Positions 5,347-45,938 of a stretch of 64,000 nt of DNA are shown here, in pieces (within the stretch, counting starts at the first letter, position 1; every line of letters begins with the position of its first letter). The position numbers and the translations under genes were made by a program. This stretch comes from a phage. The stretch is from NCBI GenBank assembly GCA_038314665.1, contig GCA_038314665.1_3677.1; one strand, 5' to 3'. The notes beneath the pieces were generated by a model. It saw only the letters and a list, made by a program, of their open reading frames with translations. It did no database searches and was not told the DNA's origin.

Positions 5347-8300
5347 ATGGCTGATATTAAAGTTGTCAGAATTGAATCTCTTCCTGCCACTACCGCAGTG
5401 ACAGAGGATGATTACCTGGTTGTTCAACAACCAGACCTGACCCGTCGTGTAAAAATTGGCGATGTTGTCCATGTGGATGGGACTGTTTCTCATGTAATCT
5501 CCTTTAAGGAAGGTGGTAAGTTAAACGGCCCAATGGATTTTGCCTACTTCGAAGAGGAAGACCTCTACCTGCGTTGGAAAGGCGAATTTCCACACACTGT
5601 TCCTGCACTGTCTTCACCGTACTCCGATGGTGGGATTACTGACGCTGCATGGATGGTATATACTGATCCGTCCTTAAGGGAGGAGCTGGAATCTACCATT
5701 GGCGCATCCATGATTATGACAGCTGAAGGTCAGTCTGTCCAGGATGTAATGGATGTTACAGTTAAGACCGCCAACGATGCTAAAGCACTTGCACAGCGGG
5801 TAGATTTTGGTACCGTGCACACTGTAGGCGATGTTATTCACCTTGTCAATTTTGTTGGCCCTGCAGTTATTGAAGAGGGAAGAACTACTAACTACCCTTC
5901 TGTAGCAGCTGGTGAAAAATTCCTGAACGGTGTGGTATCTCGTCGTGATACTACAACTGTTGATGGTATTTTCCGTGGCGCTACCTCCGGAGCTATGTAC
6001 ACCATTGCAGTAACCAACGGTGTAGCAACAACAAAAAGAATAGCACTTCGTGATGAATTTAAACGCCTAGAGGCAAACAACCCAACAAGAACCATTATTC
6101 GTGCTGGTGATGATGTAAACACAGCCGGGTACTTGCAGCTTGATGCAACAGGTCGTTGGGGCATGTGGAACCAACAGACATCTTCATGGCAACCTCTTGC
6201 TGTAGAGCAAGGTGGTACAGGTGCCAGAGATGCCGCAGGTGCACGTATTAATTTAGGAACTTTTTATAAACAACGTGCAGCCCTTGAGGCAAATTTCAAT
6301 ATCAATAATTTGACGGGTAATCAGGATGGTGTATACTACCAGCCGATGACTGCTAATGCAACTGAGGAAAATGGCTACCCTGCAGGTTCTGGTGCTGGTC
6401 ACTTAATTGTTTGGCAGAACAATGCTAACGGCGGTGCAGGTTGTCGTCAGGAATACTATCCATTCTCTAACGTAGATGTTTGGTATTTGAGAACCTATCA
6501 GGCCAACACAAATCAGTGGACTGCATGGCAGCCTATGGTCAGACCTCGTAACGATGACACCTTCAGATCTCATATCGGCCTTGGTAAAAACAACTCACCA
6601 GCATTCGGGCACCTTTACTTAGCTCAATACTCTGGAGATGTTAAATCGGCCTCAGGTATTGTACACGGTGACAAGTATAATCGAGAAGGTACTCTTGAGC
6701 ATGGATATCGTATCTACTCTGAAGTAAGAAACGATAATAAAGCTTGGTTAACAATACACCTCCATAAGGGAGCTACTGGTGCAGAAACACATAGATACCT
6801 CGGATTCAGAGAGGATGGTGTTTTAGATTGTCCTAAATATATGCAGGTTGGCGATCTAAATGGTCAGCTGGCAAACTGGGGACTGGCAGAGTGGATCCGT
6901 AGTTCAGGCGCTGAAAGAGGTTTCTGGGGTTCCAAGAAAGCAGCCAAAATGGTTATCTGGGACGGAGGCATGGATGAGTCTGGTAACGGCACTCTGGAAT
7001 GGGGTGTTTATAACAACCGGAAGGCCAAGTGGGAACCTTTACCTCAAGCCGCAGGTGGTACTGGAGCTACAACTCTGGCAGAAGCTCAAAACCTGTTTAG
7101 AATACCTATGGCAGCAGGTGTAAAAGATTTCTTAACACTGCCAAGAACAGCAGCCATGGTGGATGGTAAATATTACCCTGTTATTGTAAGAACAGATCCG
7201 TACTATGCACCAGCTGTTGGGACAGATATTACAATAGTTACAAGATCCTCTTCTGGCAACGATCCTATGAACTGCGCAACACTCCAGTGTCATTACAGAA
7301 CTGGTGGTTGGACAGACCGTGGAGACTCTTTTACTGGTGTTATAAACTTCTACCAGAACGAAAGAGCAATACTTGGTTGTGTTGCTCCTACTCGCGGAAA
7401 ACAAGAGTATGTTGCTTTTTATGTAGAGGCCAGAGCTTTCCCAGTAAGCGTATATACAAGCCGAAACGTGCTTGAGGTATTTACCAGGGAAAATGACTGG
7501 CAGGTAGGGAATGTAACTGACAATCAGGACGGTGTTAAGTTTTGTGCTCCGTTAGAGTCAGCAGACTTAAATCTTGCGATAAAGGGTGATAATGTAACTA
7601 ACACCAGATCTCTTGCGGAGTTTAAAGGAACATCAGGTTTTTACACAGGCGGTGGTACTCAGTGGCACTACATCGGCACACCTGAACGCTATGCGGTCAT
7701 GAGTAAAATGACCATGCCTAAAGTTGAGCTGTGGGCAGATGGTATCGACTACCTATGCCCTGGTAGCCAGACCACAAGGAAAGCACTGTTCTCTAATGCT
7801 GGATTCCAGGCAGCATCTGAAGGTACAGAGGACTTAATTAACAACACATTTACTTCCAAATGCGGCAAGGGTGCAGGTCTGAAAGGCCAGTCAGAGTTCA
7901 GGTCTACCCCAGAGGCTGGACAGGTAATTGTCAGAGATGTTGTTGGTTCTGCACATAAATTCTTTAACTTCAACAAAGACGGCACATTCTACCCTCCTGG
8001 AGGTTATGTTTGCCAGACAGGTGCGGATTGGAACAATCAGTTTGGTAACACGAACCCGTCAAAAATAATGGCTGGTAATGTTAACGGACCTGAAGGTTCC
8101 ATGGTTGTAGCAGGGTTGTCGGTCGGTTTTTCTGGAAATTATGCATTCCAGATGGCTGGTCGTCTTGATCAGTTATACACTAGGTCTATTGAGGGTGGCA
8201 ATCACAGAGCGTGGAACAAGGTAATCCAACACCGTGGTCAGGGCCTAGGGACAAACGATCTTAATGACTACAAGGGCGATAGAGAGGGTTTTTATCATCA

Positions 8301-33097: not shown

Positions 33098-33331
33098 TTA
33101 ATCTTCGTAAATCAGGATTTCTGCTTTAGGTTTTCGTGCTTTCAGGTCCAGCTCTATCCAGTGCACCATAGCTGTTTCAAGAAAAACAGCTTGGATGCAT
33201 CCGTCCTCAGCGTGCCCCACCAACATAACAAGATCTTCACATTCGTCATCTGCATCACGAACATACAGAATCTCTCCAGATTCAAAGTCTTTCACAACCT
33301 GATTGCTGGATAATTTACGAATTTTTGCCAT
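33098..33331 (-). CDS. small protein, member 4 of tandem paralog array
   Basis: 77 aa; shares G-x-hydrophobic-V core and acidic pattern with the three upstream paralogs. Confidence 0.4.
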   Translation of the reverse strand: MAKIRKLSSNQVVKDFESGEILYVRDADDECEDLVMLVGHAEDGCIQAVFLETAMVHWIELDLKARKPKAEILIYED

Positions 33332-33332
33332 A

Positions 33333-33596
33333 TCAGAAACCCTCTAAAAAGCTCTTGTAGAAAACAATCTCAGTATCCACACCAGTCACGATCTTGTCGT
33401 TCCTGATTTCGTCGGTAAGATAGGTGTCAAAACGCAGAACCTGTGTGGTGTTGTCACACATCCACTCAGCTGTGACCATTGCGAAAATCTTAGCATCTTC
33501 ATTGTCTGGTGTGAATGTTACCACCTCACCGCACTTAAACTTTTCGATAGGTTGAGTGTTGGCTTTCGGTTCTGCGATAGTGATTTTTGTGGTCAT
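33333..33596 (-). CDS. small protein, member 3 of tandem paralog array
   Basis: 87 aa (MTTKITIAEPKANTQPIEKFKCGEVVTF..); start codon overlaps stop of upstream paralog. Confidence 0.45.
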   Translation of the reverse strand: MTTKITIAEPKANTQPIEKFKCGEVVTFTPDNEDAKIFAMVTAEWMCDNTTQVLRFDTYLTDEIRNDKIVTGVDTEIVFYKSFLEGF

Positions 33597-33859
33597 TATT
33601 CTCCTCCTTCTTTTGAATAGCTTGTCTCTCCAAGGATGGTAATTTTGGTGTCAAGCTCTGTAACTTTCATGTTTGGCGGCAGATCGTACAACTCATTATT
33701 TTCTAAATCGAAACCCCACACACAATGTTCTCCTGTTTTGACAATCATAACTATGTTTTGAATGCCGTCTCCGTCGCAACTTACCACGGTCCCACACGGA
33801 AAACTGTCTGCACGCTTTTTGTTCTTCACCTTAGAATTGAATACAATGCTAGTAGCCAT
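33596..33859 (-). CDS. small protein, member 2 of tandem paralog array
   Basis: 87 aa (MATSIVFNSKVKNKKRADSFPCGTVVSC..); ATGA overlap with neighbours. Confidence 0.45.
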   Translation of the reverse strand: MATSIVFNSKVKNKKRADSFPCGTVVSCDGDGIQNIVMIVKTGEHCVWGFDLENNELYDLPPNMKVTELDTKITILGETSYSKEGGE

Positions 33860-34122
33860 TATTGTTCCTCCACCATAACTTCGCCAAGAATTTCTATGCA
33901 GGCATCCATTTCTGTAACAACCGAACTGTGAGGTAGTTCTACAAACACCTTTCTGAACAGGTCAAATACCCCAACATATATGTTTGCAGGATGTGATTTT
34001 ACAACAAGTGCTGTATTCACATCCCCAAGTTCATCAACAAACATCACCACAGTGCCTGGAGCTACTGAGGACAGATACTTCTTAGTTTTACGGTTTGATG
34101 CAAATTTTAACTCTGTTGCCAT
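33859..34122 (-). CDS. small protein, member 1 of tandem paralog array
   Basis: 87 aa (MATELKFASNRKTKKYLSSVAPGTVVMF..); same length as members 2 and 3. Confidence 0.45.
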   Translation of the reverse strand: MATELKFASNRKTKKYLSSVAPGTVVMFVDELGDVNTALVVKSHPANIYVGVFDLFRKVFVELPHSSVVTEMDACIEILGEVMVEEQ

Positions 34123-34137
34123 AAATAACCTCCTCTC

Positions 34138-35619
34138 TTACTTAGCGTACTCGATTAATTCCACAGTTTTCCCAAAGCTCGGGATATAATTTTTATTATA
34201 CCCATCAGTGAGGACCCATAGAGTATCGTACTTTTTCCACTTGTTGTCAATAGCCTTTTGTTCAAAGTTATGCTCAAAGTATAGGTCGGTCAGGACGATG
34301 ACATCTTTTGCATTCGGTATGTTGGCATCCAGATACTCGAACACGCAAGCAGCTGTTGTTCCCCATGTTGAGTGGACCTCATAGTTGATTATCTCGTCTA
34401 TGTTGCCACGAGTGTATACTTTAACCTCTCCAACCTCAGTTGACCAACAGAACATTGTAACCTTAAACTCTTTATACAGATTGCACAATCCGGTGATTTC
34501 ATTGAACATTTTCTTTAAAGTTCTTTGAGAGATCGAGCCAGAAACGTCTAAAGCCACCACAATATCTATAGTGTTTTCCGGATTACGACCAGGAACAATA
34601 ACGTGCTGGTTCTTGTTTATAGCCCCAACTTTTCGCATTGTGCTGGTCAAAGACCCAGATCGGCGACCAGGTTTTCTGTAGGTCAGTTCGGCCTTTCTTT
34701 TAGACAACATGCGTTGCTTAATGATGTCTATATAATTGATTACGGGCTTACCTCTGTTCTTGACAAACTCGCGCACCGCCTCAGGGCAACGACCTCCGGA
34801 AGCTTGCATTGCTGCCTCCAGCATGTCACCAGAGTCCTGCATGGCCTGATCTTTATCAGATTGGCTGATTACAGGTTGTGGCTGATCATACCCCATAGCC
34901 TTTCCAAGATTATCACTGGTGCCACCATTCCCACTCATGTGATCATCGGTTTGTCGCTTATCGCCTTGAGAGTTCTCACCTTTACCGCTCTTACTTTTAC
35001 CGTTATTCTGATCTCTTTGCTTATCAAGAACTGCATAGACGTTCTCAGCAATCCATCCATGAAACTTCATGTCGCAGTAGCAGCTGGCTAAGAAGCCAAA
35101 AGGCTTACCTTTCACGAACGTAGTGCTTTTCCCCTTCGGGAAGAAAACACAAGGAGGTTTGCTAAAGTCAACCACAAGGCCTGTGTTGATAACGTGATCA
35201 CAAGCAATATTGAACAGTTCCGGCTCAAAGCTTTTACCACGGACCAGGTGATCACAGATAATATGCCCCACCTCATGTGACAAAAGAAAGGCCACCTCTT
35301 TCACAGATTTGGGGGAATAGAAAACCTCAGCCATCTCAAACTGCTCGTCAGTTAGAGAAGCCTTAAGAATAGCCCTGCGTTCGTCAGCCAACCCCACAAT
35401 GAACTCAGGACTGTAATAGATGCGTTTATGGTCGGTTGCCATGGTGGAGCACCATGTGTGGTTTTCTACGAACTGCAACCCTGACAGTAGTGTGCCATAA
35501 AAAGGCAGCTTTTCAAGAAGATACATACGTGCAGCTTGCAACATTCTCAGGGCATCATCTTTCTGTGAGGTAATGATTTCTGAACTTCTGCTATCCATTA
35601 AAACTCCAGAAGGGGCCAT
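34138..35619 (-). CDS. vWA-domain protein with N-terminal HExxH metallopeptidase-like domain
   Basis: 493 aa; HExxH in LLSHEVGHIICDH; C-terminal MIDAS-like DxSxS in VVALDVSGSIS; architecture of the kind that pairs with MoxR-type AAA+ ATPases. Confidence 0.6.
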   Translation of the reverse strand: MAPSGVLMDSRSSEIITSQKDDALRMLQAARMYLLEKLPFYGTLLSGLQFVENHTWCSTMATDHKRIYYSPEFIVGLADERRAILKASLTDEQFEMAEVFYSPKSVKEVAFLLSHEVGHIICDHLVRGKSFEPELFNIACDHVINTGLVVDFSKPPCVFFPKGKSTTFVKGKPFGFLASCYCDMKFHGWIAENVYAVLDKQRDQNNGKSKSGKGENSQGDKRQTDDHMSGNGGTSDNLGKAMGYDQPQPVISQSDKDQAMQDSGDMLEAAMQASGGRCPEAVREFVKNRGKPVINYIDIIKQRMLSKRKAELTYRKPGRRSGSLTSTMRKVGAINKNQHVIVPGRNPENTIDIVVALDVSGSISQRTLKKMFNEITGLCNLYKEFKVTMFCWSTEVGEVKVYTRGNIDEIINYEVHSTWGTTAACVFEYLDANIPNAKDVIVLTDLYFEHNFEQKAIDNKWKKYDTLWVLTDGYNKNYIPSFGKTVELIEYAK

Positions 35620-35631
35620 TGGCCCCTGTCA

Positions 35632-36675
35632 TTATTTAACGTGTTTGAAAATACCTGCCAACTCGGTCATTGTCATGCGAGTGGTCTTCATAAGGTCTGT
35701 CATAGCTTTCTCCATAATTGGAGATACTACCATAAAGTTTCCTTTAGTGAAACCTTTATTCCAGTCGGTCACCAACAGGGGTTTAAGTCCAGCTCCAAGA
35801 CGTTCACCAGTTAAAGCACAGCATTTGCGAATATACGAACTCTTAAATTGGCTGAACGACAGATCAACTTTCATACCTGCATCGTAGAACGTTTGACAAT
35901 AGAAAGTGTAAGCCTTAGCAATCTCAACATCATCAGGCAGTGCAGGAACCTCTTCTGCAATCCCCTCTTCGACCTCCTGAGGCTCTTTTTCCTCTTCAGA
36001 GTTCTGTTCTTCAACTTCTTCTGTCACAGTCTCGTTTACGATGTCTGAAATGTGTTTGTTGGCTGCACGATCAGCCATGAAATTTTTAAAGTCCTGCATT
36101 GGTGACATATCTTCTTCCTCTTCGTCAAAGAGTGCCAGTTTATCCTCTTCCGTTCCATATTGCAAGATGAAATCTTCAAAAGTATAATCACCTTTCAATT
36201 TCTCCATACGCTCTTCGCTCAGGTGGAGCATCATCTGCTGGACAATTTTTCGATCAGTTTCGTCTTTAATCAAGACTGCAGTCTTTTTATCTACCAGACA
36301 GTCCTTTAGAGAGTTGCATCTCAATCCCACCACACAACAGTTATCAACCGCATAAGGACCTTCATCATCTATCCGCTCCAGAGATGGGTAGAAAGGATTT
36401 CCCAGCCCGTTTTCATCTGTGTGCATGTCAAAAGGTATAAGGGTATAGTCGCATACTCCATCTCCTAAAAGTTTTTTACCAAATAGGAGGTATTCTTCCC
36501 ATGACAGGTCGAACTCTATATCTCGTTTCCGTGCATTATTCTGTTTGCGTCTATATTTTTTGAGCAGGCGCTCTAACTCTTCTGGTGTATAATATTTTTC
36601 AAGATTCATGAGTTGTCTCTCGTGCTCTGTAAGTGAAGAAATCGTATCAATTGTCTCAACAGATGTCAACATCAA
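35632..36675 (-). CDS. acidic hypothetical protein
   Basis: 347 aa with Glu/Asp-rich central region; first gene of the minus-strand array (TTG then ATG at 36670-36672). Confidence 0.45.
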   Translation of the reverse strand: MMLTSVETIDTISSLTEHERQLMNLEKYYTPEELERLLKKYRRKQNNARKRDIEFDLSWEEYLLFGKKLLGDGVCDYTLIPFDMHTDENGLGNPFYPSLERIDDEGPYAVDNCCVVGLRCNSLKDCLVDKKTAVLIKDETDRKIVQQMMLHLSEERMEKLKGDYTFEDFILQYGTEEDKLALFDEEEEDMSPMQDFKNFMADRAANKHISDIVNETVTEEVEEQNSEEEKEPQEVEEGIAEEVPALPDDVEIAKAYTFYCQTFYDAGMKVDLSFSQFKSSYIRKCCALTGERLGAGLKPLLVTDWNKGFTKGNFMVVSPIMEKAMTDLMKTTRMTMTELAGIFKHVK

Positions 36676-36682
36676 AAATGTG

Positions 36683-36711
36683 TTGACTTTACTCTAACTC
36701 CATAATATAGT
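36683..36711 (+). promoter_or_regulatory. sigma70-like promoter for the replication-module operon
   Basis: TTGACT - 17 nt - TATAGT, 41 nt upstream of ATG 36752; lies in the divergent intergenic region. Confidence 0.45.
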
Positions 36712-36751
36712 GCACCCATTCGAAAGAAAACTAACATAGGAGCACTTACTT

Positions 36752-37651
36752 ATGGCAAATCTTAACAGTTTTAGTACGCGGTGGAAACAGGACATAACAA
36801 CCAATCTTTCAGCTGGGGACATCCTTTCTGCAATTTACGAGGCTTTAGATGATAAAGCTACTTCAAAAGCGGTTTGTACCAACCCACTAATTCCTGTAGT
36901 GATGAAGGTTATTGAGCGTAGATTGGTATCTGGGTCTGATAAGTGGACATATTTAGATAATGAAGGACACACCTATTCCAATGGGTATGTCGATATAAAA
37001 GTAGAATACGCGGTATCATACCGCCGAAGCGGTTCTGTGACTTTCAACTTTTCTGGAGGTTTCAGATCTCTGGCAACTTCACCTTTTGTTTCCTCAGAAG
37101 AGAAGTATGAGCTGCCATTTCTTTGGATGATGGCTAACGCGACAGGAAAAACCCCCGTTAGCATCCGAGTAAAATACAATTACAACGGATCTAGTAAGAT
37201 CTATGCCGAAAGTGTCTCAGCAAGTTTTTATTTTGTGATGGGGGATGGAATCCTCAAACATATAAAGATGTGCGATATGCATGATGTTATAAATGAAGTG
37301 ACTGATAAGAATGTTCTAGTGAAAGACCTCAACAATTTTTATACACCCGGAGACTATTACGTCAACCGTCCACTGTGCATCTTTAATGCCGCACACCCTC
37401 TAGGTGAGTATTTGATCGCCAATAGCGATATTGCCAATAACCGCTTCGAGGTAGCAAGAGTTCAGAATGAGGTATTGACATCTTGCAAGAGCGGTGATAA
37501 GTTTACCGAAGAAGAGATGGGTGTTTTAGAAATGATGGGATATAAGTGTAGCCTTTGGGTAGATGAGGTGTTTAATGATTGCATCTATGGACAGGATATT
37601 CACCCACTAAAGAAGTATACTGATTCCAGTTTAATTTACGCGGAGATTTGA
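36752..37651 (+). CDS. hypothetical protein
   Basis: 299-aa ORF with RBS TAGGAG, first gene of + strand module. Confidence 0.5.
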   Translation: MANLNSFSTRWKQDITTNLSAGDILSAIYEALDDKATSKAVCTNPLIPVVMKVIERRLVSGSDKWTYLDNEGHTYSNGYVDIKVEYAVSYRRSGSVTFNFSGGFRSLATSPFVSSEEKYELPFLWMMANATGKTPVSIRVKYNYNGSSKIYAESVSASFYFVMGDGILKHIKMCDMHDVINEVTDKNVLVKDLNNFYTPGDYYVNRPLCIFNAAHPLGEYLIANSDIANNRFEVARVQNEVLTSCKSGDKFTEEEMGVLEMMGYKCSLWVDEVFNDCIYGQDIHPLKKYTDSSLIYAEI

Positions 37652-37926
37652 CTATGATGAAGTCATGTGGTAGTGTATATTATGTTGGTGAGAATGTTCA
37701 GGCAGATAGTGTGTGGAAATCCATTAAGTCCACCACCGATGATGCCTTTCTGAGCGGGTTATGTTTTCCCAATCCGGGAGACATCCTCCCTCATCCTGGA
37801 GATTTTGTTGTCAACAAGATGGACGGTTATACCGTGTGCCTGATGGTTGAAAAAATCTTTTTAGACACTAGACACAATCACCGTCTTGTGTTAAAATTTC
37901 AAGAATGTAAAATGACAATTTCCTAA
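37648..37926 (+). CDS. hypothetical protein
   Basis: 92-aa ORF, 4-nt overlap with upstream gene. Confidence 0.4.
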   Translation: MTMMKSCGSVYYVGENVQADSVWKSIKSTTDDAFLSGLCFPNPGDILPHPGDFVVNKMDGYTVCLMVEKIFLDTRHNHRLVLKFQECKMTIS

Positions 37927-37939
37927 GGAGACCTTACCG

Positions 37940-38296
37940 ATGTCTAAAGTTACTTATCGTGCAGCTATTTACTGCAATGAACACCCAATCAATAATGATG
38001 GTCACTGCCTTTTCAAAGAAAATCAGTTGGGATGTATTGTCCTCCCTGATGAAGGGGAAGGTTATCTGATTGCATTAACAGGGTTTGAGCCTGAAGCTTT
38101 GGAAGCCAATCTGGACTACCTGGTAGAAGAGGGTGCTGCAGACCTGGTTGCCAATGGCTTCCCCGTAAGCCTTGACGAAGTGGAGCGCTTCATGGGCAAT
38201 TACCGTGTAGTGCGTGAGTTTACTATCGAGGTGGAAACTCCAGAGTGGGGCAGCCATGAAACTAATGCCGAAGAAAAAGAAGAGGGGGTAGAATAA
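37940..38296 (+). CDS. hypothetical protein
   Basis: 118-aa ORF, RBS AAGGAGA. Confidence 0.45.
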   Translation: MSKVTYRAAIYCNEHPINNDGHCLFKENQLGCIVLPDEGEGYLIALTGFEPEALEANLDYLVEEGAADLVANGFPVSLDEVERFMGNYRVVREFTIEVETPEWGSHETNAEEKEEGVE

Positions 38297-38553
38297 TGAA
38301 AGTGCAGATCTTGACTAATGCCGAGAAGATGTTTATCGAAGATACACCTTTTGAAGCTGGTGAGCTACAGTTCGTTTATTTTGTTGACTTAGATAAGGTG
38401 TTCCCTGCACTGAATCTGGGTCTGGATGAAGTTCCTCATAAGGTTTTGTGCCAAGTTGTTCGTGCATTAGCGGCAGATGGAGAGTTCCACACCCTTCAAG
38501 ATGTCCAGACCTACGGGTACCTTGAACTACAACGAGAAGAAGAGGTGGACTGA
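38296..38553 (+). CDS. hypothetical protein
   Basis: 85-aa ORF, ATGA overlap. Confidence 0.4.
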   Translation: MKVQILTNAEKMFIEDTPFEAGELQFVYFVDLDKVFPALNLGLDEVPHKVLCQVVRALAADGEFHTLQDVQTYGYLELQREEEVD

Positions 38554-38555
38554 TA

Positions 38556-38936
38556 ATGGCTCAGTGGAAGACAACAGTTGACCTTCATGATCAGTGGTTA
38601 GGACGCATCACTGAAGACGGGAAGCTAGTGGAGTGGGACAATAAGCATGTTAGCGAGTTGGCAAGTATTGTGGCTGGTAAGCTACGCTCCAAGTTCCCTG
38701 AACAACTGGATCCTGATAGTTCAAAGTTCGATCCTGAGTTGGAGGATGTTGTATACTACTTCGACACCGTTGATGACTACGATGCGTGGTTTGCAGCACG
38801 GGAGCTTTACCCACAAGGCTCTGCTATGCGCCAGATGGAAGAAGATTATCCTCCGTGCGAGCAATTTAATAGCGCAATGACTTGCCTCTACGATTGGGCA
38901 GATAAGAACCTTGTCTGGATTCGGACTGCATTTTAG
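38556..38936 (+). CDS. hypothetical protein
   Basis: 126-aa ORF. Confidence 0.45.
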   Translation: MAQWKTTVDLHDQWLGRITEDGKLVEWDNKHVSELASIVAGKLRSKFPEQLDPDSSKFDPELEDVVYYFDTVDDYDAWFAARELYPQGSAMRQMEEDYPPCEQFNSAMTCLYDWADKNLVWIRTAF

Positions 38937-38980
38937 TGGGCAGGAATGGCGGCAAGGATGCTGCTTAAGGAGTAGTAGAG

Positions 38981-39250
38981 ATGTTATACCAGCAATATGA
39001 ACTTCGTGCAGAAAAAGAGTTAAATTTTGACAAAGATATTCACAGATATTATTATGGGAAAGTTAGAGGGCAAGCAAGAAAGTGTACTCCAACACTCTTT
39101 TATGCCAGCAGACGACTAGCGCCAGAAGAGGCAACAGCAGAAAGGGTTGCGTACAACTGGAGAGTCACGTATGATATTGACAGATCCGATGTGATATCTG
39201 TTTTGGAAAACTTTGAAAACACTTACACACAAGTAGAGGACTTTTACTAA
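38981..39250 (+). CDS. hypothetical protein
   Basis: 89-aa ORF, RBS AGGAG, stop overlaps next ATG. Confidence 0.4.
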   Translation: MLYQQYELRAEKELNFDKDIHRYYYGKVRGQARKCTPTLFYASRRLAPEEATAERVAYNWRVTYDIDRSDVISVLENFENTYTQVEDFY

Positions 39251-40434
39251 TGTCAAGAAACGTATTTGAAAGTGGTCAAATCACTGTCCGTGAGTTGCCA
39301 GCTATCATTCAGTTTGCCCAGCGTCATAACCGATCTGTCCTGATTTTAGGACCAATGGGCGTGGGAAAGAGCCAAGTGATGAAGCAGATCGCCGATAATA
39401 TGTTCGGTGAGCGAGATGATAACTTGGTTGACGTGCGACTGTCAGATAAAGATCCTGCCGACTTATCTGGGCTACCTATCCCTGTAGAAGCGGATGGAAC
39501 TACACGTACAGTATTTGCAATTCCAGAATTTTGGCCTGCGGATCCTGACTGGAGCGGAATTATCTTTCTGGATGAGCTCACTCATGCAGATAACTACCTG
39601 CAAAAGGTTGCAATGCAAATTATGCTCGACCACAAGTGCGGTACCTATGCATTCCCTAAGGGTTCTGTTTTTGTGGCTGCTGGTAACCGTTCTACAGATG
39701 GTGCGGTTCTTTCGGCGCTCGAAGCCCCTCTGGCTAACCGTTTTATCATTGTAGAAGTTACAAGCAATGCAGAGGTGTTTATTGAGGACTACGCATTCCT
39801 TAATGGGGTGCACTCCTCTGTAATTGGATATCTGAAAAGAGTTCCATCAGCTATCGATAATTATGAGGCCATGGCTGAGATTAATTGTCCATCTTTTGCC
39901 ACACCACGATCTTGGGTTGCTGCATCTGATATCTTGCACGATTTTGACAGCGGTATTATTTCTGACGCTATGGCCCGTGTTCTTCTGCAAGGTGCTATCG
40001 GTCACACTGCAGCGGTAGAGATCTGGACTTACCACACCAAGAAACGCAACTTACCGGAAATCGGTCGGATTATGGCAGGAGGTTGCAAAGAATACGTAGG
40101 TCCTAAACAGCCGGACATCTTGTGGATTCTTGGATCTGAAGGTTGTATCGCTATTCGTAATATGATGGAAAATGCAAGTATCTCCGACGAAGATCTTGTT
40201 AGCTGTGTGGCAAACTTCCTCGATTTCCTTTGGGAAAACTTCAAGGACGAGAACCGAGATTTTGTATTCTCAGTCTTTATGGCGATGATGAAACCTAATG
40301 CCTTAGGAAATGCCTTGCTTATCGGTAAAGGTCGTGACAAGATCGTTGCTCAGCTGATCAAAGCATACCCAAACCTGATGAAGATTGTAAAGGAGTTTGG
40401 TGAAGAGTTTAGCGCCATTTTGGCTAAAGCTTAA
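39250..40434 (+). CDS. AAA+ ATPase, MoxR-like
   Basis: 394 aa; Walker A ILGPMGVGKSQ, Walker B IIFLDELTHA, AAA_5-like spacing. Confidence 0.65.
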   Translation: MSRNVFESGQITVRELPAIIQFAQRHNRSVLILGPMGVGKSQVMKQIADNMFGERDDNLVDVRLSDKDPADLSGLPIPVEADGTTRTVFAIPEFWPADPDWSGIIFLDELTHADNYLQKVAMQIMLDHKCGTYAFPKGSVFVAAGNRSTDGAVLSALEAPLANRFIIVEVTSNAEVFIEDYAFLNGVHSSVIGYLKRVPSAIDNYEAMAEINCPSFATPRSWVAASDILHDFDSGIISDAMARVLLQGAIGHTAAVEIWTYHTKKRNLPEIGRIMAGGCKEYVGPKQPDILWILGSEGCIAIRNMMENASISDEDLVSCVANFLDFLWENFKDENRDFVFSVFMAMMKPNALGNALLIGKGRDKIVAQLIKAYPNLMKIVKEFGEEFSAILAKA

Positions 40435-40443
40435 GGAGGTTGT

Positions 40444-40824
40444 ATGGCTAAAGTAGGTAAGCGGGGAAACTACCTGGTGGTATTAACTGAGGAGCCGGAG
40501 AAGGAGTACGAATGCAGCTCCACTTGCGTGATCGATATCCGAGAAAAAGATGTAGATGAAATCTGGTTTAAAATATTGGACGCTTGCGATAGCAGTGATT
40601 ATTTCTTCATCTATGTCAACGATAAGGCTGGGTTCTTCCATGACGACGGAGAGTTACCGTATGAAATTTATGAACTTGTAGAGGCTTGCCATCGTGGAGA
40701 TGCGGAGTTATTTGGCTTACGGCTGAAAAGCGGTAAATTCTTCTATCAAGATGAGTGCATGAATCTTCATAACTTTGTAGAGGGAACTTGCAACGATGGA
40801 GAAATTTTGGCACACTACGATTAA
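40444..40824 (+). CDS. hypothetical protein
   Basis: 126-aa ORF with RBS AAGGAGG. Confidence 0.4.
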   Translation: MAKVGKRGNYLVVLTEEPEKEYECSSTCVIDIREKDVDEIWFKILDACDSSDYFFIYVNDKAGFFHDDGELPYEIYELVEACHRGDAELFGLRLKSGKFFYQDECMNLHNFVEGTCNDGEILAHYD

Positions 40825-40836
40825 TTTCTAAGACCA

Positions 40837-40860
40837 CCCCGCTTCGGCGGGGATTTTCTA
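40837..40860 (+). terminator. rho-independent terminator
   Basis: ccccgc-TTCG-gcgggg hairpin followed by attttctattt, 12 nt after stop 40824. Confidence 0.55.
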
Positions 40861-40872
40861 TTTGGAGTTATT

Positions 40873-41373
40873 GTGAAAATTAAGATCTTTGCTATTATTT
40901 TGAGCGCATTTTTATCGCTGCCTGTTGTTGCAGCACCAAAACAAAAAGTATACCATACTTGCAAGCCATCAGATACTAAGGAAAACATTCTAGCATGCAA
41001 TATCTACAGGGAAGCTAGAGGTGATGGCACGATGGGTATGCTGGCATCTGGGTTTGCCACCCTAAACAGGAAATCTCACCCCAAATACCCAGACACTATA
41101 AGAAAGATTGTCTACCAACCTAACCAGTTTTCGTGGACAAACCACGGCAAAACTTTTAAGGTGACAGAAAAAGATTCATGGGATCACGCTAAAAGTCTTG
41201 CAAAGATGCTTCTAAAGGTCTATAATAACAACCATGTTGCATACATGGCTATGGATATAACAGGTGGAGCAACACACTACCATACAACCAAAGTACGACC
41301 GAAATGGGCAAAAAAGATGCAGAGGACAGCTCAATTCGGGAGCCATATCTACTACAAGGAGTGCAATAAATGA
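40873..41373 (+). CDS. secreted cell-wall hydrolase, SleB-like
   Basis: GTG start; N-terminal signal peptide MKIKIFAIILSAFLSLPVVAAP; CNIYREARGDG..IVYQPNQFSW resembles SleB/hydrolase_2 signature. Confidence 0.5.
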   Translation: MKIKIFAIILSAFLSLPVVAAPKQKVYHTCKPSDTKENILACNIYREARGDGTMGMLASGFATLNRKSHPKYPDTIRKIVYQPNQFSWTNHGKTFKVTEKDSWDHAKSLAKMLLKVYNNNHVAYMAMDITGGATHYHTTKVRPKWAKKMQRTAQFGSHIYYKECNK

Positions 41374-43352
41374 TCGTAAACAGTAATGAAACTAAAGCGG
41401 TACTAACCGGGAATATGGAGGTCACCAGGGGCTCAATTTCTCTGAACAAAGAGACTTTTGGGCTAATTATTAAAGGGATTTACGAAGATAAGGTGCTGGC
41501 AAGCTGCCGTGAACCAATCTTCAATGCCGTGGACTCCCATGTTGAGTCTGGACGGGGGGATGTACCGATCATTATTCACTCTCCTACAGACCTTGAACCA
41601 TACTTCTTTGTACAGGACGTTGGATTGGGTATGTCAGAAGAGATGGTCCGCAACACTTTTATGAACCTCGGGGAGTCAACCAAGCGCAACAGCAACGCTC
41701 TGGTAGGTAATAAAGGTGTTGGTTCAAAGGCTCCGTTCAGCATGGTGGACACTTTCGATGTGATCAGTGTGCATAATGGTGTTGAAAGCACATATCTATT
41801 GTTCTTGGATCAGGGTATCCCAAACGTTACCAAGATCCGCGAGCGGAAGACTGAAGAGCACAACGGGGTAAAAGTTCAGTTCCATGTTAAGAAAGAGCAT
41901 GTACTGAAATATCGCACTGCTATTGCATCGTGCTTACGCTATGCGAAGTTTCCGTTCACCGTCACCGATCCCATGACCAGTAAGATGTTAGAAGGTGACA
42001 AGGTTGAGGCACAGTATCATTACGAGAAGGATGGTTGGAAGATGACCATTCTGAAGGGCTATACCAGCTCAGACGAGAGCCGTGTTGTGATGGGTCACCA
42101 ACCTTACCGCTCTAAGTTCCTGGAGACATTGACCGATTACCCTGCAATCTGCGTGGAAATTCCTATCGGAGATTGCAATATTAACCCAGGACGTGAATGG
42201 ACTATAGAGGGCCATGACGACGGTGGATTCCAGGATCGCCTGGAGGCCTTTGTCAAAGAAGGTATACGTCTTCGTGGGGCAGAAGTTGTTGCAGAACTGG
42301 AGACGGCAAAAACCTCCGCAGAAGCACGTGAAATGATGAAGAATAGTGGAGTGTTCGGACACATCTTCGGCAAAAACTTTATGTGGAACCGTTGGGAAGA
42401 AACAGGGCTTGGCGACTTAGGCGATTGTGAAATTTTCGCTGGCGGCTTAAATAAAGGCCGCATAGGTTATGCTCGTTACGGAAAGTCGGAGTTCTTACGA
42501 GGTGTATACCTTGTATTTAACGACGGAGACGGCAAATATAACCGAAATAAGTGTAACTACTTAAGCGAGATCACCGGACGCAACGTTTTCTATTGCCGGG
42601 ACACGGATCTGGTGAAAGAGTTTAAAGAGGTGGCACACCATCCGTTCTTTGCAGATACGGTCAAATTGTTATCTGAGCTTCCACGCCGACCTGCGAAGAA
42701 AGGTGAAACCAAAACTCATTATGAGCCAGGTTATTGGGTTAAAAAACTTGAGAAGGATGGTTACTTCCGTCGTGAACGTATTACTAAGGCAGAGTTCAAG
42801 AAGATTAAGCACTGCATTCCTTATGAGGGTGATATCCAACGTGGAAGTTGTTGGCTGGGGCAGCTGAGTAACATCTACCAGCAAGATTATGACCGCGTGC
42901 GTGCGGCACTCCAGATTCCTGAAGGGGAAGATCTGTACCTGGTATCGGAATCCCGTCTGCTTTGGACTGATCCTGATTGCCAGTATGTTACAGAGAAGAA
43001 TGTGGAACATTTGTTGAAAGAGGACGCTTGGAAATTCTTACTGACTCGCGCAGCAAATGAAACTTCATATGACAGCCTGTATAAACAATTAGGGAAAATT
43101 ATCCCCATGCAAGATTTTGGAAATTATCGGCCACATTTCCACAAGTGGGAAGGCAACACCGCGTGGAAGCACAGTGAGCTAAATCATCGTGCCAAAATCT
43201 TAATCGCCAACCGAGTCAAGTGCGGGAAGGCCTATATTGCAAGATTGGAAAAGAAATATCCACTTTTGGAGCATGTAGGCTTGAAATATTGGGACACTCC
43301 TGCTATGATTGAATACCGTGAGCTGATTGATACAAAGAATAACACCAAATAA
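41370..43352 (+). CDS. GHKL-superfamily ATPase (Bergerat fold) protein
   Basis: 660 aa; N-box EPIFNAVD, G1 box DVGLGM, G2 box GNKGVGSKA in canonical order. Confidence 0.5.
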   Translation: MIVNSNETKAVLTGNMEVTRGSISLNKETFGLIIKGIYEDKVLASCREPIFNAVDSHVESGRGDVPIIIHSPTDLEPYFFVQDVGLGMSEEMVRNTFMNLGESTKRNSNALVGNKGVGSKAPFSMVDTFDVISVHNGVESTYLLFLDQGIPNVTKIRERKTEEHNGVKVQFHVKKEHVLKYRTAIASCLRYAKFPFTVTDPMTSKMLEGDKVEAQYHYEKDGWKMTILKGYTSSDESRVVMGHQPYRSKFLETLTDYPAICVEIPIGDCNINPGREWTIEGHDDGGFQDRLEAFVKEGIRLRGAEVVAELETAKTSAEAREMMKNSGVFGHIFGKNFMWNRWEETGLGDLGDCEIFAGGLNKGRIGYARYGKSEFLRGVYLVFNDGDGKYNRNKCNYLSEITGRNVFYCRDTDLVKEFKEVAHHPFFADTVKLLSELPRRPAKKGETKTHYEPGYWVKKLEKDGYFRRERITKAEFKKIKHCIPYEGDIQRGSCWLGQLSNIYQQDYDRVRAALQIPEGEDLYLVSESRLLWTDPDCQYVTEKNVEHLLKEDAWKFLLTRAANETSYDSLYKQLGKIIPMQDFGNYRPHFHKWEGNTAWKHSELNHRAKILIANRVKCGKAYIARLEKKYPLLEHVGLKYWDTPAMIEYRELIDTKNNTK

Positions 43353-44568
43353 GGAGACAGTTATGATTTTCATCTACGAACACTTCAAAACTCGTAAAGA
43401 AGCACGCGACCGCCGTGCAGAGCTTGAGAAGAAGGGTTTCACATGTGCCATTGAGAAAGGCGACACAACCTGGACACTGGCAGTTGGTGCCCCAGAGTTG
43501 TTCGATCCTGACCGTGACAGCGTCTGCTACACCCGTGAGGATTTTGAAACCCGCGAAGAGGCCCGTTTATTTCGATACGGTCTGGAAGATAACGGTAAGT
43601 ACGCCATGATCTTAGATTTAGGCGAAGGTTCCGTTAAACGTTGGGGCGTGGTATACCCACTGTGTGTTGTTCACGGTGTAGGGTTCACTGGGGTAGCAAT
43701 CAAGTCAGAAGAACCTTTAGTAGAAGTAAAAGATCCGGTGTTGGAGGTGGTGAGCAGTGTGTCTCAGCAACAGACTCGAAGCATCGAGCCTTTGGTAGTT
43801 ATTTGCGGAGAACTCCTCCAGATCACCTGCAACGAAGGTATTTTTGAAATTCGCCGCAGTGAAAGTGAGGAAGTTTACCAGAAAGTCTTCGACCATATCT
43901 CTGTTCAGGAATATGATGAGGCAATTGGTGAAATCCTTGTCTGGCTGGAACGCAAGAACGAGTTCACTACACTTGCAGACAACCTGATCATGAAAGATGG
44001 TAAGCTCTACTACTACGGCGTAGAGATGCGATCCACCATTGCAAAGAAAATTGAGAAAGACTACGCAGACGGAACATTGGATGACCGCTATGTGAAATTC
44101 CTCGTTCGCCTGCTACGCAATCCATCTGCAAAATCTGTAAACATGCTTTACGATTTTATGCAGGCCAACGATATCCAGATTGCAGAAGATGGTCGAATCA
44201 TTTGCTATAAGGGGGTTCAGTTTAACGGAAGCAAGTGGGTGGATTGGCACAGCGGTAAAGTTCCACAATACCAGGGTGCTTTTGTATCCATGCCTCGTAA
44301 CTTTGTAGAAGATGATCCGGAAGCTGCGTGTTCTTATGGCCTGCACTGCGCCAGCAAAGAGTATGCAAAGAGCTACGGCACTGTAATGACTGTTATGGTT
44401 GACCCTGCAGATGTGGTTAGTGTGCCATACCAACACAATAGCGCTAAGTGCCGTGCATGCCGCTATGAGATTGTGGTAGCTCCGGAAGCACGCAAAGATG
44501 GAGACCCTATCGAATACGTAGTTGACCGCGACGGTAACACTATCGACATTCTTTACGAGGAGGCGTAA
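43327..44568 (+). CDS. hypothetical protein
   Basis: 413-aa ORF, start region overlaps end of GHKL gene, stop overlaps helicase ATG. Confidence 0.45.
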   Translation: MIQRITPNKETVMIFIYEHFKTRKEARDRRAELEKKGFTCAIEKGDTTWTLAVGAPELFDPDRDSVCYTREDFETREEARLFRYGLEDNGKYAMILDLGEGSVKRWGVVYPLCVVHGVGFTGVAIKSEEPLVEVKDPVLEVVSSVSQQQTRSIEPLVVICGELLQITCNEGIFEIRRSESEEVYQKVFDHISVQEYDEAIGEILVWLERKNEFTTLADNLIMKDGKLYYYGVEMRSTIAKKIEKDYADGTLDDRYVKFLVRLLRNPSAKSVNMLYDFMQANDIQIAEDGRIICYKGVQFNGSKWVDWHSGKVPQYQGAFVSMPRNFVEDDPEAACSYGLHCASKEYAKSYGTVMTVMVDPADVVSVPYQHNSAKCRACRYEIVVAPEARKDGDPIEYVVDRDGNTIDILYEEA

Positions 44569-45938
44569 TGGAAAAAGGGCAGTATGATGTAGGCACAGAT
44601 GCTGCCCTCGTTGCAATCATGAGCGGTGAGAATGTCTTCGTCTCAGGACCTGCAGGTTGTGGGAAGACGTACCTCATCAACATGATCCAGTCAATGTATG
44701 GAGACTCTTGCATAACGGTTGCCCCGACAGGGGTAGCCGCTTTAAACGTTAATGGAGCAACAGCACACCGAACCTTCGATCTTGCAGCAGGTGTGAGCAT
44801 GGAGTCAGACTGGACCGCAATAAGGGCAAAAACAGCAAAGCCTTTGAAAAGCAAGGCATTTACCATCCTAATTATCGATGAAATCTCTATGATCCGTGCT
44901 GATAAGTTTATAGAGATGGATAGGAAACTCCGCTTCCTTCGAAAAAATGACAAACCTTTCGGAGGCATACAGGTCATATTGTTTGGCGATTTTTACCAGG
45001 CACCTCCTGTTGTCTCTTCTATGGAGAAGGAAGCCTACTTCAACTTCTACCATACGGACCTGTGTTGCTATACCGAATCTTGGAAAGAGCTTGACCTCCA
45101 CAACATAGCCCTAGTAGATCAGTTCCGACAGGAGTCTATTCGATTTGCCACAATGCTCAACTGTGTTCGTGAGGGTCGTCGCATAAAAGAAGTTGTAGCA
45201 GAACTTAATGCTCGCTGTTACAAAGGAGGTGTACCAACAGACGCTCTCACAATTTGCGCCACCAACAAACAAGCGGAGGAAGTGAACAGAAGGTTCTATG
45301 ATGCCATCAACGCCCCAGAGAAGGTATACACTGGTGAAATGAAAGGTAAGTTTCCCTCCACCCTGCCAGTTGAGCAGGAGATGAAGTTGAAAATTGGCAT
45401 GAAGGTTATGATAACCGCCAACGATGTTGACCCGACGCACAAAGTACCTTATTATGTTAACGGAACACGTGCCACGATTGTTAAATTTAAGAACAAGGCG
45501 GTGGTGGTGGAGCTTGAAGATGGAACACAGGTTGACATAGAGCAAAGGTTGTGGGAGAATAACGAGTATAAGCCATCTCAAAGATACAACATTGCAGAAA
45601 GGAAGATGGAGAAGTTTATAGAGAGGGTAGTGATTGGATCATACAGGCAACTTCCTCTGAAATCTGGATACGCCGTAACATCTCATAAAAGTCAAGGACT
45701 TACGCTAGATTGTTACAACCTGGACCTTGGAAAGAACGGAGCTTTCTCTCCTGGGATGACGTATGTTGCTTTGAGTCGAGTTAAGACAATACAAGGAATA
45801 AACTTGTTGCGTCCACTAAGAGAAGTTGACATTATTGTTGACCCGCGAGTCGTAGAGTTTTACAATACAACATTCCCTGACTTAGACAAAATTGTCAGGA
45901 AAGATTTTGAAACCAGAGCAGAAGAGGGGGACGTATGA
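44568..45938 (+). CDS. PIF1/Dda-like superfamily 1 DNA helicase
   Basis: Walker A GPAGCGKT, Walker B LIIDEISM, GDFYQAPPV motif typical of PIF1/RecD-like helicases. Confidence 0.65.
   Translation: MEKGQYDVGTDAALVAIMSGENVFVSGPAGCGKTYLINMIQSMYGDSCITVAPTGVAALNVNGATAHRTFDLAAGVSMESDWTAIRAKTAKPLKSKAFTILIIDEISMIRADKFIEMDRKLRFLRKNDKPFGGIQVILFGDFYQAPPVVSSMEKEAYFNFYHTDLCCYTESWKELDLHNIALVDQFRQESIRFATMLNCVREGRRIKEVVAELNARCYKGGVPTDALTICATNKQAEEVNRRFYDAINAPEKVYTGEMKGKFPSTLPVEQEMKLKIGMKVMITANDVDPTHKVPYYVNGTRATIVKFKNKAVVVELEDGTQVDIEQRLWENNEYKPSQRYNIAERKMEKFIERVVIGSYRQLPLKSGYAVTSHKSQGLTLDCYNLDLGKNGAFSPGMTYVALSRVKTIQGINLLRPLREVDIIVDPRVVEFYNTTFPDLDKIVRKDFETRAEEGDV

Follow-up and report, generated by a model that had tools for sequence, protein, structure and literature searches.

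A MoxR ATPase and a Metallopeptidase-vWA Protein as a Probable Counter-Defence Pair, Separate from rIIA/rIIB, at a Divergent Junction of a Vequintavirus Genome

Introduction

Partnerships between a MoxR-class AAA+ ATPase and a protein carrying a von Willebrand factor A (vWA) domain are known from the NorQ/NorD and CbbQ/CbbO systems, in which a hexameric MoxR motor works with an adaptor that bears a metal ion-dependent adhesion site (MIDAS) and whose targets are nitric oxide reductase and Rubisco. In NorQ/NorD, the vWA domain has been described to insert a finger into the pore of NorQ, which remodels a NorD linker by ATP hydrolysis (PMC13036017). In phages, gp24 (of unknown function) and gp25 (with a vWA domain) of N4 count among the 14 genes that form the core of N4-like phages, and both are middle transcripts (PMC4193335). 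Iyer et al. (2021, Viruses 13:63; PMC7824862) have described a MoxR plus metallopeptidase-vWA chaperone/co-chaperone pair in the group 2.2 jumbo phages, citing ASV44729.1 and ASV44728.2 of phage Atu_ph07, and have proposed that it acts in virion assembly with proteolytic processing. The present work deals with a pair of this kind in a stretch of phage DNA of 64,000 nucleotides (contig GCA_038314665.1_3677.1, hereafter the window), where the two genes lie on opposite sides of a divergent junction and have an rIIA/rIIB pair as neighbours. We consider it probable that the MoxR-vWA pair is a counter-defence system of its own.

The 11.8 kb around the locus show 97-99% nucleotide identity to more than 100 deposited genomes of Vequintavirus (rV5-like) coliphages, among them the close relatives phiWec193, RudolfGeigy/Bas52, MaxBurger/Bas54 and isim, and this identity assigns the window to Vequintavirus. 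Bas54 carries orthologous genes in the order and with the annotations found for the window, with essentially no difference at the sequence level. The locus is an ordinary one from a well-sampled phage genus, and the records of its relatives already name the genes as 'putative metallopeptidase', 'anti-sigma factor', 'MoxR ATPase', 'cell wall hydrolase', 'rIIA', 'rIIB' and 'DNA helicase'. A first-pass annotation of the window, made from its letters and open reading frames (ORFs), had grouped the ATPase, the vWA protein, a GHKL ATPase and a SleB-like hydrolase into one module that matched nothing described. That view has to be abandoned, as the pair corresponds to N4 gp24/gp25 (PMC4193335) and to the pair of Iyer et al. 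(PMC7824862) and is already annotated in relatives; the locus is known at the level of genes, of annotations and, for MoxR, of phenotype. Literature searches on DUF2201, on MoxR in Vequintavirus and for two essentiality papers (CRISPRi-ART and a transposon-mutagenesis preprint) yielded nothing on these genes.

The Two Proteins of the Pair

The two genes on which the analysis centres are the following:

34138..35619, minus strand: zincin-like metallopeptidase (HExxH) with a C-terminal vWA domain and MIDAS motif, 493 aa (Pfam, alignment and AlphaFold2 model)
39250..40434, plus strand: MoxR-class AAA+ ATPase, 394 aa (motifs, PHROG 1297 at 1.4e-110, profile and model)

The ORFs and the HExxH, MIDAS, AAA+ and GHKL motifs read in the first-pass annotation are all present according to ORF calls, Pfam and alignments. 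The protein encoded on the minus strand, which starts at M8 (35598) in deposited relatives and would then measure 486 aa, matches the Pfam families DUF2201_N ('putative metallopeptidase', 1.3e-27) and DUF2201 ('VWA-like', 5.5e-11). Its conservation was followed in an alignment of 30 sequences reaching down to 21% identity. The invariant residues of the N-terminal half comprise H115-E116-V-G-H119, which is the HExxH motif, together with H124 and D141 as candidate third zinc ligands; those of the C-terminal half are D358-x-S360-G361-S362, G420, T421, T444 and D445. At the level of sequence, both the HExxH and the MIDAS motifs are complete. The AlphaFold2 model (mean predicted local distance difference test score, pLDDT, 81.6) places the DxSxS...T...D residues of the MIDAS on a Rossmann-like vWA fold, and its C-terminal domain matches vWA domains including those of NorD, BatB and Rea1-MIDAS. 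Between the two halves, at about residues 208-250, runs a disordered linker rich in Gly, Ser and Asp. The protein is identical to bas54_0055 at 473 of 486 positions (97.3%).

A different name for this family circulates in databases. The PHROG label 'HNH endonuclease' attached to phrog_1314 (zincin-vWA) and phrog_3118 (Srd-like) is wrong and unsupported by domain content; it has spread into RefSeq, for instance to N4 gp25 (N4 locus 6165-7307) and to GAP31_031/033.

The ATPase carries a Walker A motif (G34-P-M-G37-V-G39-K40-S41, GPMGVGKS), a Walker B motif (F106-L-D108-E109, FLDE), the sensor 1 asparagine N146, and R147, R164 and R220; across 21 sequences, the most distant at 30% identity, the core motifs vary little or not at all. 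By the query sequence alone its MoxR identity is weak. The query falls below every Pfam AAA gathering score (AAA_5, PF07728, reaches 16.7 bits against a cut-off of 22, and AAA_3, PF07726, is not listed), and single-sequence searches of the PDB and Pfam returned only P-loop-level matches to Clp/p97. AAA_3 and AAA_5 are present in 8 of the 21 aligned sequences, homologues with 31-36% identity and an E-value of about 1e-44 to the query. With the query below these cut-offs and its homologues above them, membership of the MoxR class is by sequence transitive only. In the 21-sequence profile the best PDB match is to the AAA domains of midasin (4.8e-9). The AlphaFold2 model (pLDDT 81.3) finds the MoxR ATPases NorQ and CbbQ2 as its top 14 Foldseek matches in the PDB (E 5e-8 to 6e-7), with RFC, RuvBL and ClpC ranking behind them, and it shows beta-hairpins at 76-89 and 129-135 that flank the Walker B strand, inserts typical of the helix-2-insert clade. 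Homologues with AAA_3/AAA_5, the midasin match and the NorQ/CbbQ2-like model together settle the assignment to the MoxR class. The protein differs from bas54_0063 at a single position (393/394 identical, 99.7%).

The profile matches that the first-pass annotation had looked to were obtained for DUF2201_N/DUF2201 and for HATPase_c_3 in the GHKL protein, and failed for the ATPase query, with AAA_5 below cut-off; structure prediction came out in its favour, with the ATPase model nearest to NorQ/CbbQ2 and the C-terminus of its partner matching vWA domains.

Comparison with the described pairs reveals both common ground and clear differences. The best matches of the ATPase model come from the NorQ and CbbQ side (Foldseek E 5e-8 to 1e-7; template modelling score on the target 0.60-0.66), and the combination of a MIDAS-bearing adaptor with a MoxR motor, hexameric in NorQ and CbbQ and presumably so in the phage, is the same. 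NorD and CbbO are devoid of a peptidase domain, and the phage ATPase differs from NorQ/CbbQ by some 130 additional, helical residues at its C-terminus, with a sequence identity of 16-20%. The N4 pair is homologous (gp24 profile E 2e-56; 'gp25-like' proteins of N4-like phages are matched by tblastn), has equal domain content and, like the window pair, lies upstream of rIIA-rIIB, helicase and DNA polymerase. In N4, however, the genes are adjacent and co-directional with the ATPase first, whereas in the window they are 3.6 kb apart on opposite strands; identity amounts to about 21-27%, and the N4 middle genes are transcribed by the phage's own RNA polymerase II, while the window promoters look sigma70-like. 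With Atu_ph07 the window shares a two-protein architecture in which an N-terminal metallopeptidase is fused to the vWA domain, and its proteins match ASV44729 and ASV44728 (tblastn 5e-26 and 1e-27). The Atu_ph07 genes are adjacent, and the virion-assembly proposal made for them is at odds with the non-essentiality and the host-dependent requirement seen in Bas54.

Conservation of the Pairing across Phages and Bacteria

The distribution of the two proteins was assessed by tblastn at E <= 1e-5 over 50,697 phage records, in which the vWA protein was found in 672 (probably a lower bound) and the ATPase in 813. The host genera match: Escherichia accounts for 212 vWA and 214 ATPase records, Pseudomonas for 104 and 108, Pectobacterium for 26 and 26, and Cronobacter for 17 and 17. 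Loci around vWA homologues were then fetched via three sub-alignments and their neighbours scored by profiles, so that the counts given here describe samples.

In the N4-like loci the ATPase gene lies adjacent and upstream of the vWA gene on the same strand in all cases (18/18), and the same holds for 73 of the 80 bacterial loci, the seven exceptions including short contigs with the vWA gene at the contig start. The rV5-type scan found MoxR within 10 kb of the vWA gene in 29 of 30 loci. These 29 divide into 11 in which MoxR precedes the vWA gene by 0-2.3 kb on the same strand, which include Certrevirus-type loci (genes adjacent) as well as more distant relatives, and 18 of Vequinta/Seuna type with MoxR 3.4-5.1 kb off on the opposite strand. 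The window, with its genes 3.6 kb apart on opposite strands, departs from the adjacent co-directional layout. Among annotated phages, adjacent same-strand pairs are found in Pantoea phage F5M2A, N4 and Atu_ph07, and GAP31 is split as in the window. The sole rV5-scan locus lacking MoxR within 10 kb upstream, IMGVR_UViG_3300045988_163358 (1/30), holds a vWA gene (45% identity) and the Srd-like gene described below, and reflects either wider spacing or loss of the ATPase.

The pairing put forward in the first-pass annotation is borne out by this distribution, which runs through related phages (18/18 N4-like and 29/30 rV5-scan loci within 10 kb) and on into bacteria (73/80). Their conserved co-occurrence marks the MoxR ATPase and the HExxH/vWA protein as cognate partners. 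An old pair of adjacent genes has thus been rearranged in this lineage to give the divergent layout, and the window carries a rearranged member of the family.

Close cellular homologues, consisting of an AAA_5 MoxR and a DUF2201_N/DUF2201 protein, are frequent among sulfur-oxidising gammaproteobacteria, for example in Sedimenticola, Thiohalophilus and Candidatus Thiodiazotropha. The bacterial pair accounts for more than 498 confirmed matches and takes the form of a two-gene cassette in ordinary chromosomal context. Around the Sedimenticola pair, the neighbours (a zinc peptidase, an HDOD protein, a PAS-GGDEF-EAL protein and a sulfur globule protein) offer no functional clue. An apparent rIIA near the bacterial pair in 9 of the 80 loci (jackhmmer 1e-32 to 1e-40) is actually HtpG/Hsp90, picked up by profile drift within the GHKL superfamily, and was discarded as an association. 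This HtpG gene lies 2.6-5.5 kb from the vWA gene, upstream in seven of the nine loci and downstream in two, and its proximity is probably local synteny.

Host-Dependent Requirement in Bas54

Phenotypes for the orthologues of the window genes are available from the transposon-insertion sequencing (HIDEN-SEQ) of Bas54 (MaxBurger) by Humolli et al. (bioRxiv preprint, Nov 2025, 10.1101/2025.11.20.689424). On E. coli K-12 all genes from bas54_0055 to bas54_0068 are non-essential, with insertions in 81 of 86 TA sites of the vWA-protease gene and in 60 of 64 TA sites of MoxR (10.1101/2025.11.20.689424). Fitness was compared between K-12 and the uropathogenic isolate CFE311, which carries DS-28. In CFE311, MoxR (bas54_0063) shows a log2 fold change of -7.23 (q=0) and the vWA-protease (bas54_0055) one of -2.20 (q=0.009), and the helicase gene bas54_0068, on which the preprint makes no comment, reaches -6.32 (q=0) (10.1101/2025.11.20.689424). 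The changes are not significant for rIIA (-0.01), rIIB (-0.34), the SleB-like gene (-0.88), the Srd-like gene (-0.08) and the 126-aa ORF (+0.38), and the 89-aa ORF has no fitness effect (10.1101/2025.11.20.689424).

According to the preprint, DS-28 is a predicted two-gene defence system of CFE311, and knockouts of bas54_0063 (MoxR) and of bas54_0140 are reported to be sensitive to DS-28 cloned in K-12 (10.1101/2025.11.20.689424). Its authors name only MoxR and bas54_0140, which lies outside the window, as anti-DS-28 factors and draw no link from MoxR to the vWA gene, despite the significant depletion of the latter in their own table. An anti-defence role is in this way partly supported, by experiment for MoxR and more weakly for its vWA partner. 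As to the supplement of the preprint, the sheet 'Data S6 resampling_K-12_vs_CFE303' of Extended Data Table 8 is the CFE311 run, its console line naming the 311 wig file; its values coincide exactly with those of Data S7, and the stored supplement therefore lacks the Bas54 comparison with CFE303.

The Divergent Junction and Its Transcription Signals

The elements that lie between and around the two genes are these:

35632..36609, minus strand: Srd-like 'anti-sigma factor' gene, first of the leftward operon and adjoining the vWA gene upstream (PHROG 3118 at 2.5e-110, 4592 and 1400; Srd / sigma70 decoy)
36641..36711, both strands: back-to-back sigma70-like promoter matches (consensus scan, 10/12 each)
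38981..39250, plus strand: 89-aa ORF whose end overlaps the MoxR start codon (ORF call)
40444..40824, plus strand: 126-aa protein, last gene of the MoxR transcription unit (PHROG 12370, no function)
40837..40852, plus strand: hairpin CCCCGC-TTCG-GCGGGG with a T-rich tail, resembling an intrinsic terminator (six G-C pairs; second-ranked site of the region)

The divergent promoter region of the first-pass annotation is a real gap with sigma70-like matches on both strands. By mechanical ORF calls the gap measures 76 bp (36676-36751); it widens to about 140 bp with the ATG at 36609 used in relatives. The minus-strand match consists of TTGACA (36669-36664), a spacer of 17 nt and TACGAT (36646-36641), and the plus-strand match of TTGACT (36683-36688), 17 nt and TATAGT (36706-36711). 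The Srd-like gene likely starts at ATG 36609 and not at TTG 36675, because the minus-strand promoter match falls between the two. An inverted repeat, GTCAAC-N11-GTTGAC (36665-36687), has the two -35 hexamers as its arms, to which the scan adds two paired bases each, leaving a 7-nt loop. The GTCAAC...GTTGAC core recurs in IMG/VR relatives, the most distant of them a locus with 61% vWA identity. The two matches presumably act as promoters; since the operons of MoxR and of the vWA protein start from these back-to-back predicted promoters, co-expression of the separated genes is probably retained.

Directly upstream of the vWA gene, the Srd-like gene occurs in 21 of the 30 rV5-scan loci, including every locus with the split arrangement. 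We regard it as putative context, which does not imply membership in the MoxR-vWA pair. On the opposite side, the best sigma70 match of the region (TTGACA-17-TATTAT, 11/12) lies at 39027-39055 on the plus strand, inside the 89-aa ORF upstream of MoxR, and downstream of the 126-aa ORF comes the terminator-like hairpin, which sets the MoxR unit apart from SleB-rIIA. The hairpin may well end transcription, and together with the match at 39027-39055 it would make MoxR and the 126-aa ORF a short separate transcription unit. The 89-aa ORF (3e-46 to 2e-55) and the 126-aa protein (6e-68 to 5e-79) were found in all six fetched loci with rIIB next to MoxR and in no other fetched locus.

On a larger scale, the sign of the GC skew changes twice, near 30 kb and near 36.7 kb. 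These changes match a block of minus-strand genes at 29.7-36.7 kb that meets plus-strand genes at the junction. The region is the divergent junction of what is presumably the early gene region of the Vequintavirus genome. The window contains no tRNAs. The plus-strand gene at 36752-37651 (299 aa) is labelled 'putative alpha 1-3 fucosyltransferase' in relatives, has no Pfam match at E<0.01 and belongs to PHROG 12338, which is without function; its name looks like an inherited, unsupported annotation. Directly downstream of the vWA-protease gene, at 33098-34122 on the minus strand, stand four tandem small genes (77, 87, 87 and 87 aa), which are divergent paralogues with 18-22% identity to the first aligned copy, similar length, and common N-terminal 'MAT..F.S' and GxVV motifs. 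Such of their orthologues as Bas54 has (bas54_0052 to 0054) are non-essential.

rIIA/rIIB, the SleB-Like Hydrolase and the Helicase

Beyond the hairpin, the plus strand carries the following genes:

40873..41373, plus strand: SleB-type cell-wall hydrolase (Pfam Hydrolase_2, 2.1e-19)
41370..43352, plus strand: rIIA, with an N-terminal GHKL ATPase domain and a variable C-terminal region, 660 aa (PHROG 612; BLASTP with T4 and N4)
43363..44568, plus strand: rIIB, directly downstream of rIIA (ATG 43363 in relatives; mechanical call from TTG 43327)
44568..45938, plus strand: Dda/PIF1-like superfamily 1 helicase at the start of the replication genes (Pfam PIF1, 9e-33; PHROG 325, Dda-like)

The GHKL ATPase, which the first-pass annotation had taken for a member of the MoxR-vWA module, is identified by homology as rIIA; with rIIB, missed in that annotation, it makes up a classical T4-type rII pair. 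It matches PHROG 612 ('RIIA') at 3.3e-124 over residues 1-657 of 660 and Pfam HATPase_c_3 at 1.8e-8, with the N box REPIFNAVD, the G1 box DVGLGM and the G2 box GNKGVGSKA. By BLASTP its residues 1-198 show 28% identity to T4 rIIA (E 3e-21) and match N4 gp33 (E 4e-20), and 647 of 660 residues are identical in Bas54 rIIA (98.0%). The product of the downstream gene matches PHROG 609 (1.4e-61) and T4 rIIB (37% identity over 204 aa, E 5e-39) and is identical to bas54_0067 at 401 of 401 positions. With T4 the window shares the GHKL domain of rIIA, the conserved C-terminal part of rIIB and the adjacent order of rIIA followed by rIIB; it differs in that the C-terminal two-thirds of rIIA cannot be aligned by BLASTP and in the N-terminal ~180 residues of rIIB. 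The GHKL domain of rIIA had already been noted (PMC7824862). In T4, the rII genes are needed for growth on hosts with RexAB-type abortive infection; a literature search for rIIA/rIIB of rV5-like phages on such hosts found no data.

The SleB-like protein, also drawn into the module by the first-pass annotation, reaches 70.4 bits for Hydrolase_2 (cut-off 27; residues 51-161), and its N-terminus, judged by reading, is hydrophobic and signal-peptide-like (VKIKIFAIILSAFLSLPVVAAP). The annotated endolysin of Bas54 is bas54_0202, which takes no insertions, and the SleB orthologue bas54_0065 is freely disrupted. The protein is a putatively secreted accessory hydrolase, not the lysis endolysin, and is separate from both pairs: its gene lies beyond the terminator-like hairpin and has no significant effect in CFE311, so that its membership in the module falls, as does that of rIIA, which is paired with rIIB and neutral in the same strain. 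SleB-type genes are found near MoxR in Seunavirus, in Certrevirus and in one N4-like contig as well. The helicase gene may represent a second conditional or counter-defence function beside rIIB.

A Counter-Defence Pair and the Alternatives

The explanation that we favour, and to which we give good though not overwhelming odds, is that two independent two-gene systems, the MoxR-vWA counter-defence pair and rIIA/rIIB, meet together with an unrelated hydrolase at the divergent junction. The first of them would be the rV5-lineage version of the N4 gp24/gp25-type pair, in which two genes that were ancestrally adjacent and co-directional have come to lie in two divergent operons. If NorQ/NorD and CbbQ/CbbO are taken as the model, a MoxR hexamer would dock the vWA domain, whose MIDAS site would capture an acidic residue of a specific target protein; ATP hydrolysis, passed on through the partner and possibly through its linker at ~208-250, would remodel the target, which the HExxH domain may then cleave. 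The physical complex, MIDAS-mediated capture, proteolysis and the identity of the target are all inferred. The output would be conditional counter-defence, with the pair dispensable on K-12, MoxR required against DS-28 and the vWA-protease contributing in the DS-28 strain. In parallel, rIIA would work with the adjacent rIIB as a T4-type rII pair, which in T4 protects against Rex-type abortive infection, apart from MoxR-vWA.

Several points weigh against this reading. The depletion of the vWA-protease is about 4.6-fold, much weaker than the complete loss seen for MoxR, and it was measured in CFE311 and not against cloned DS-28, and is not discussed by the authors of the preprint; MoxR may act partly or wholly without its partner in CFE311, or the two effects may concern different host factors. 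The composition and origin of DS-28 were not found in the literature. We know of no phage member of the family for which physical interaction, ATPase activity or protease activity has been demonstrated. The promoter and terminator calls are consensus matches only, the region holding 30 promoter-like sites against 23.7±4.3 in shuffles. Finally, the pair is widespread, being core in N4-like phages and present in unrelated lineages and on bacterial chromosomes, a breadth that would be unusual if the pair served to inhibit a single defence system, and that suggests a target of a more general kind.

This last point leads to the alternative that the pair is a general remodeller for host takeover or maturation, acting in metal insertion, enzyme reactivation or the removal of host proteins, and that the DS-28 phenotype is indirect, for example because an unprocessed complex is sensed. 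Known MoxR-vWA pairs do mature or reactivate specific complexes, as in metal insertion by NorQD and reactivation by CbbQO, and the weaker phenotype of the vWA gene relative to MoxR would fit. Because core status in N4-like phages and the plain two-gene cassettes of cellular homologues (73 of 80 sampled loci with an adjacent MoxR) weigh against a narrowly dedicated inhibitor, this explanation keeps appreciable weight. We nevertheless judge it improbable, given that the invariant HExxH peptidase domain has no counterpart in NorD or CbbO, that the genes are dispensable on K-12 under laboratory conditions, and that the MoxR knockout is reported to be specifically sensitive to DS-28 cloned in K-12, the signature expected of counter-defence. 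A virion-assembly chaperone with a processing protease, in which the pair folds or assembles structural proteins that the peptidase trims, has been published for the homologous Atu_ph07 pair by analogy with the MoxR-vWA system that the archaeal virus ATV needs for tail development (PMC7824862), and core status in N4-like phages fits a basic role in the life cycle better than a host-specific one. Against it, insertions in both genes are tolerated at ~94% of TA sites on K-12, which means that infectious particles can be made in their absence, and the requirement varies with the host strain. In rV5, N4 and Atu_ph07 the genes sit among replication, nucleotide-metabolism and rII genes and not in structural modules; N4 gp24/gp25 are middle transcripts (PMC4193335), and the window genes stand behind sigma70-like promoter matches. 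An assembly role is accordingly unlikely in our estimation, clearly more so than a general remodeller.

The single novel machine of MoxR, vWA-protease, GHKL ATPase and SleB-like hydrolase around a divergent promoter, as first proposed for the window, appears highly improbable. Its components do lie within 9 kb; Vequintavirus preserves the order MoxR ... SleB-rIIA, as does Seunavirus GAP31, where ~6 kb of additional genes intervene; and in N4, as in some N4-like contigs, rIIA-rIIB follows 3-10 kb downstream of the gp24/gp25 genes. The order common to N4 and rV5 is, however, explained by a conserved non-structural layout (MoxR-vWA ... rIIA-rIIB ... helicase ... DNA polymerase). The GHKL protein is rIIA with its own partner rIIB; rIIA, rIIB and SleB are neutral in CFE311, where MoxR is required; and the terminator-like hairpin parts the MoxR unit from SleB-rIIA. 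Moreover, in Certrevirus-type loci and in Atu_ph07 the MoxR-vWA pair persists although rIIA is absent from the surrounding 10-15 kb, and in Pantoea phage F5M2A the SleB and helicase genes lie together on the opposite strand, with no rIIA in a 29.5-kb stretch that includes the gap between. What survives of the anti-defence machine of the first-pass annotation is the part concerning MoxR, through the reported DS-28 result, and, more weakly, the part concerning the vWA gene; its four-gene form does not.

Implications

Returning to the counter-defence pair, the Bas54 data provide the first selectable phenotype for the ATPase of a very widespread pair without known mechanism. The present analysis adds that an apparently motif-intact and conserved protease-vWA partner lies across the divergent promoter and is also significantly depleted in CFE311, and that rIIA, rIIB and SleB are not involved. 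A vague 'chaperone' annotation becomes in this way a concrete question, that of MoxR-vWA against DS-28. A bolder version, which we hold as tentative and rather doubtful, is that the pair constitutes a general ATP-driven counter-defence protease machine, in which the MIDAS would capture an immune protein (DS-28A/B in E. coli, others elsewhere), MoxR would unfold it or pry it apart and the HExxH domain would destroy it. If true, such a machine would explain the retention of the pair as a core module in N4-like phages, Vequintavirinae and many jumbo phages, and phages would then be known for the first time to turn an AAA+-coupled protease against bacterial immunity.

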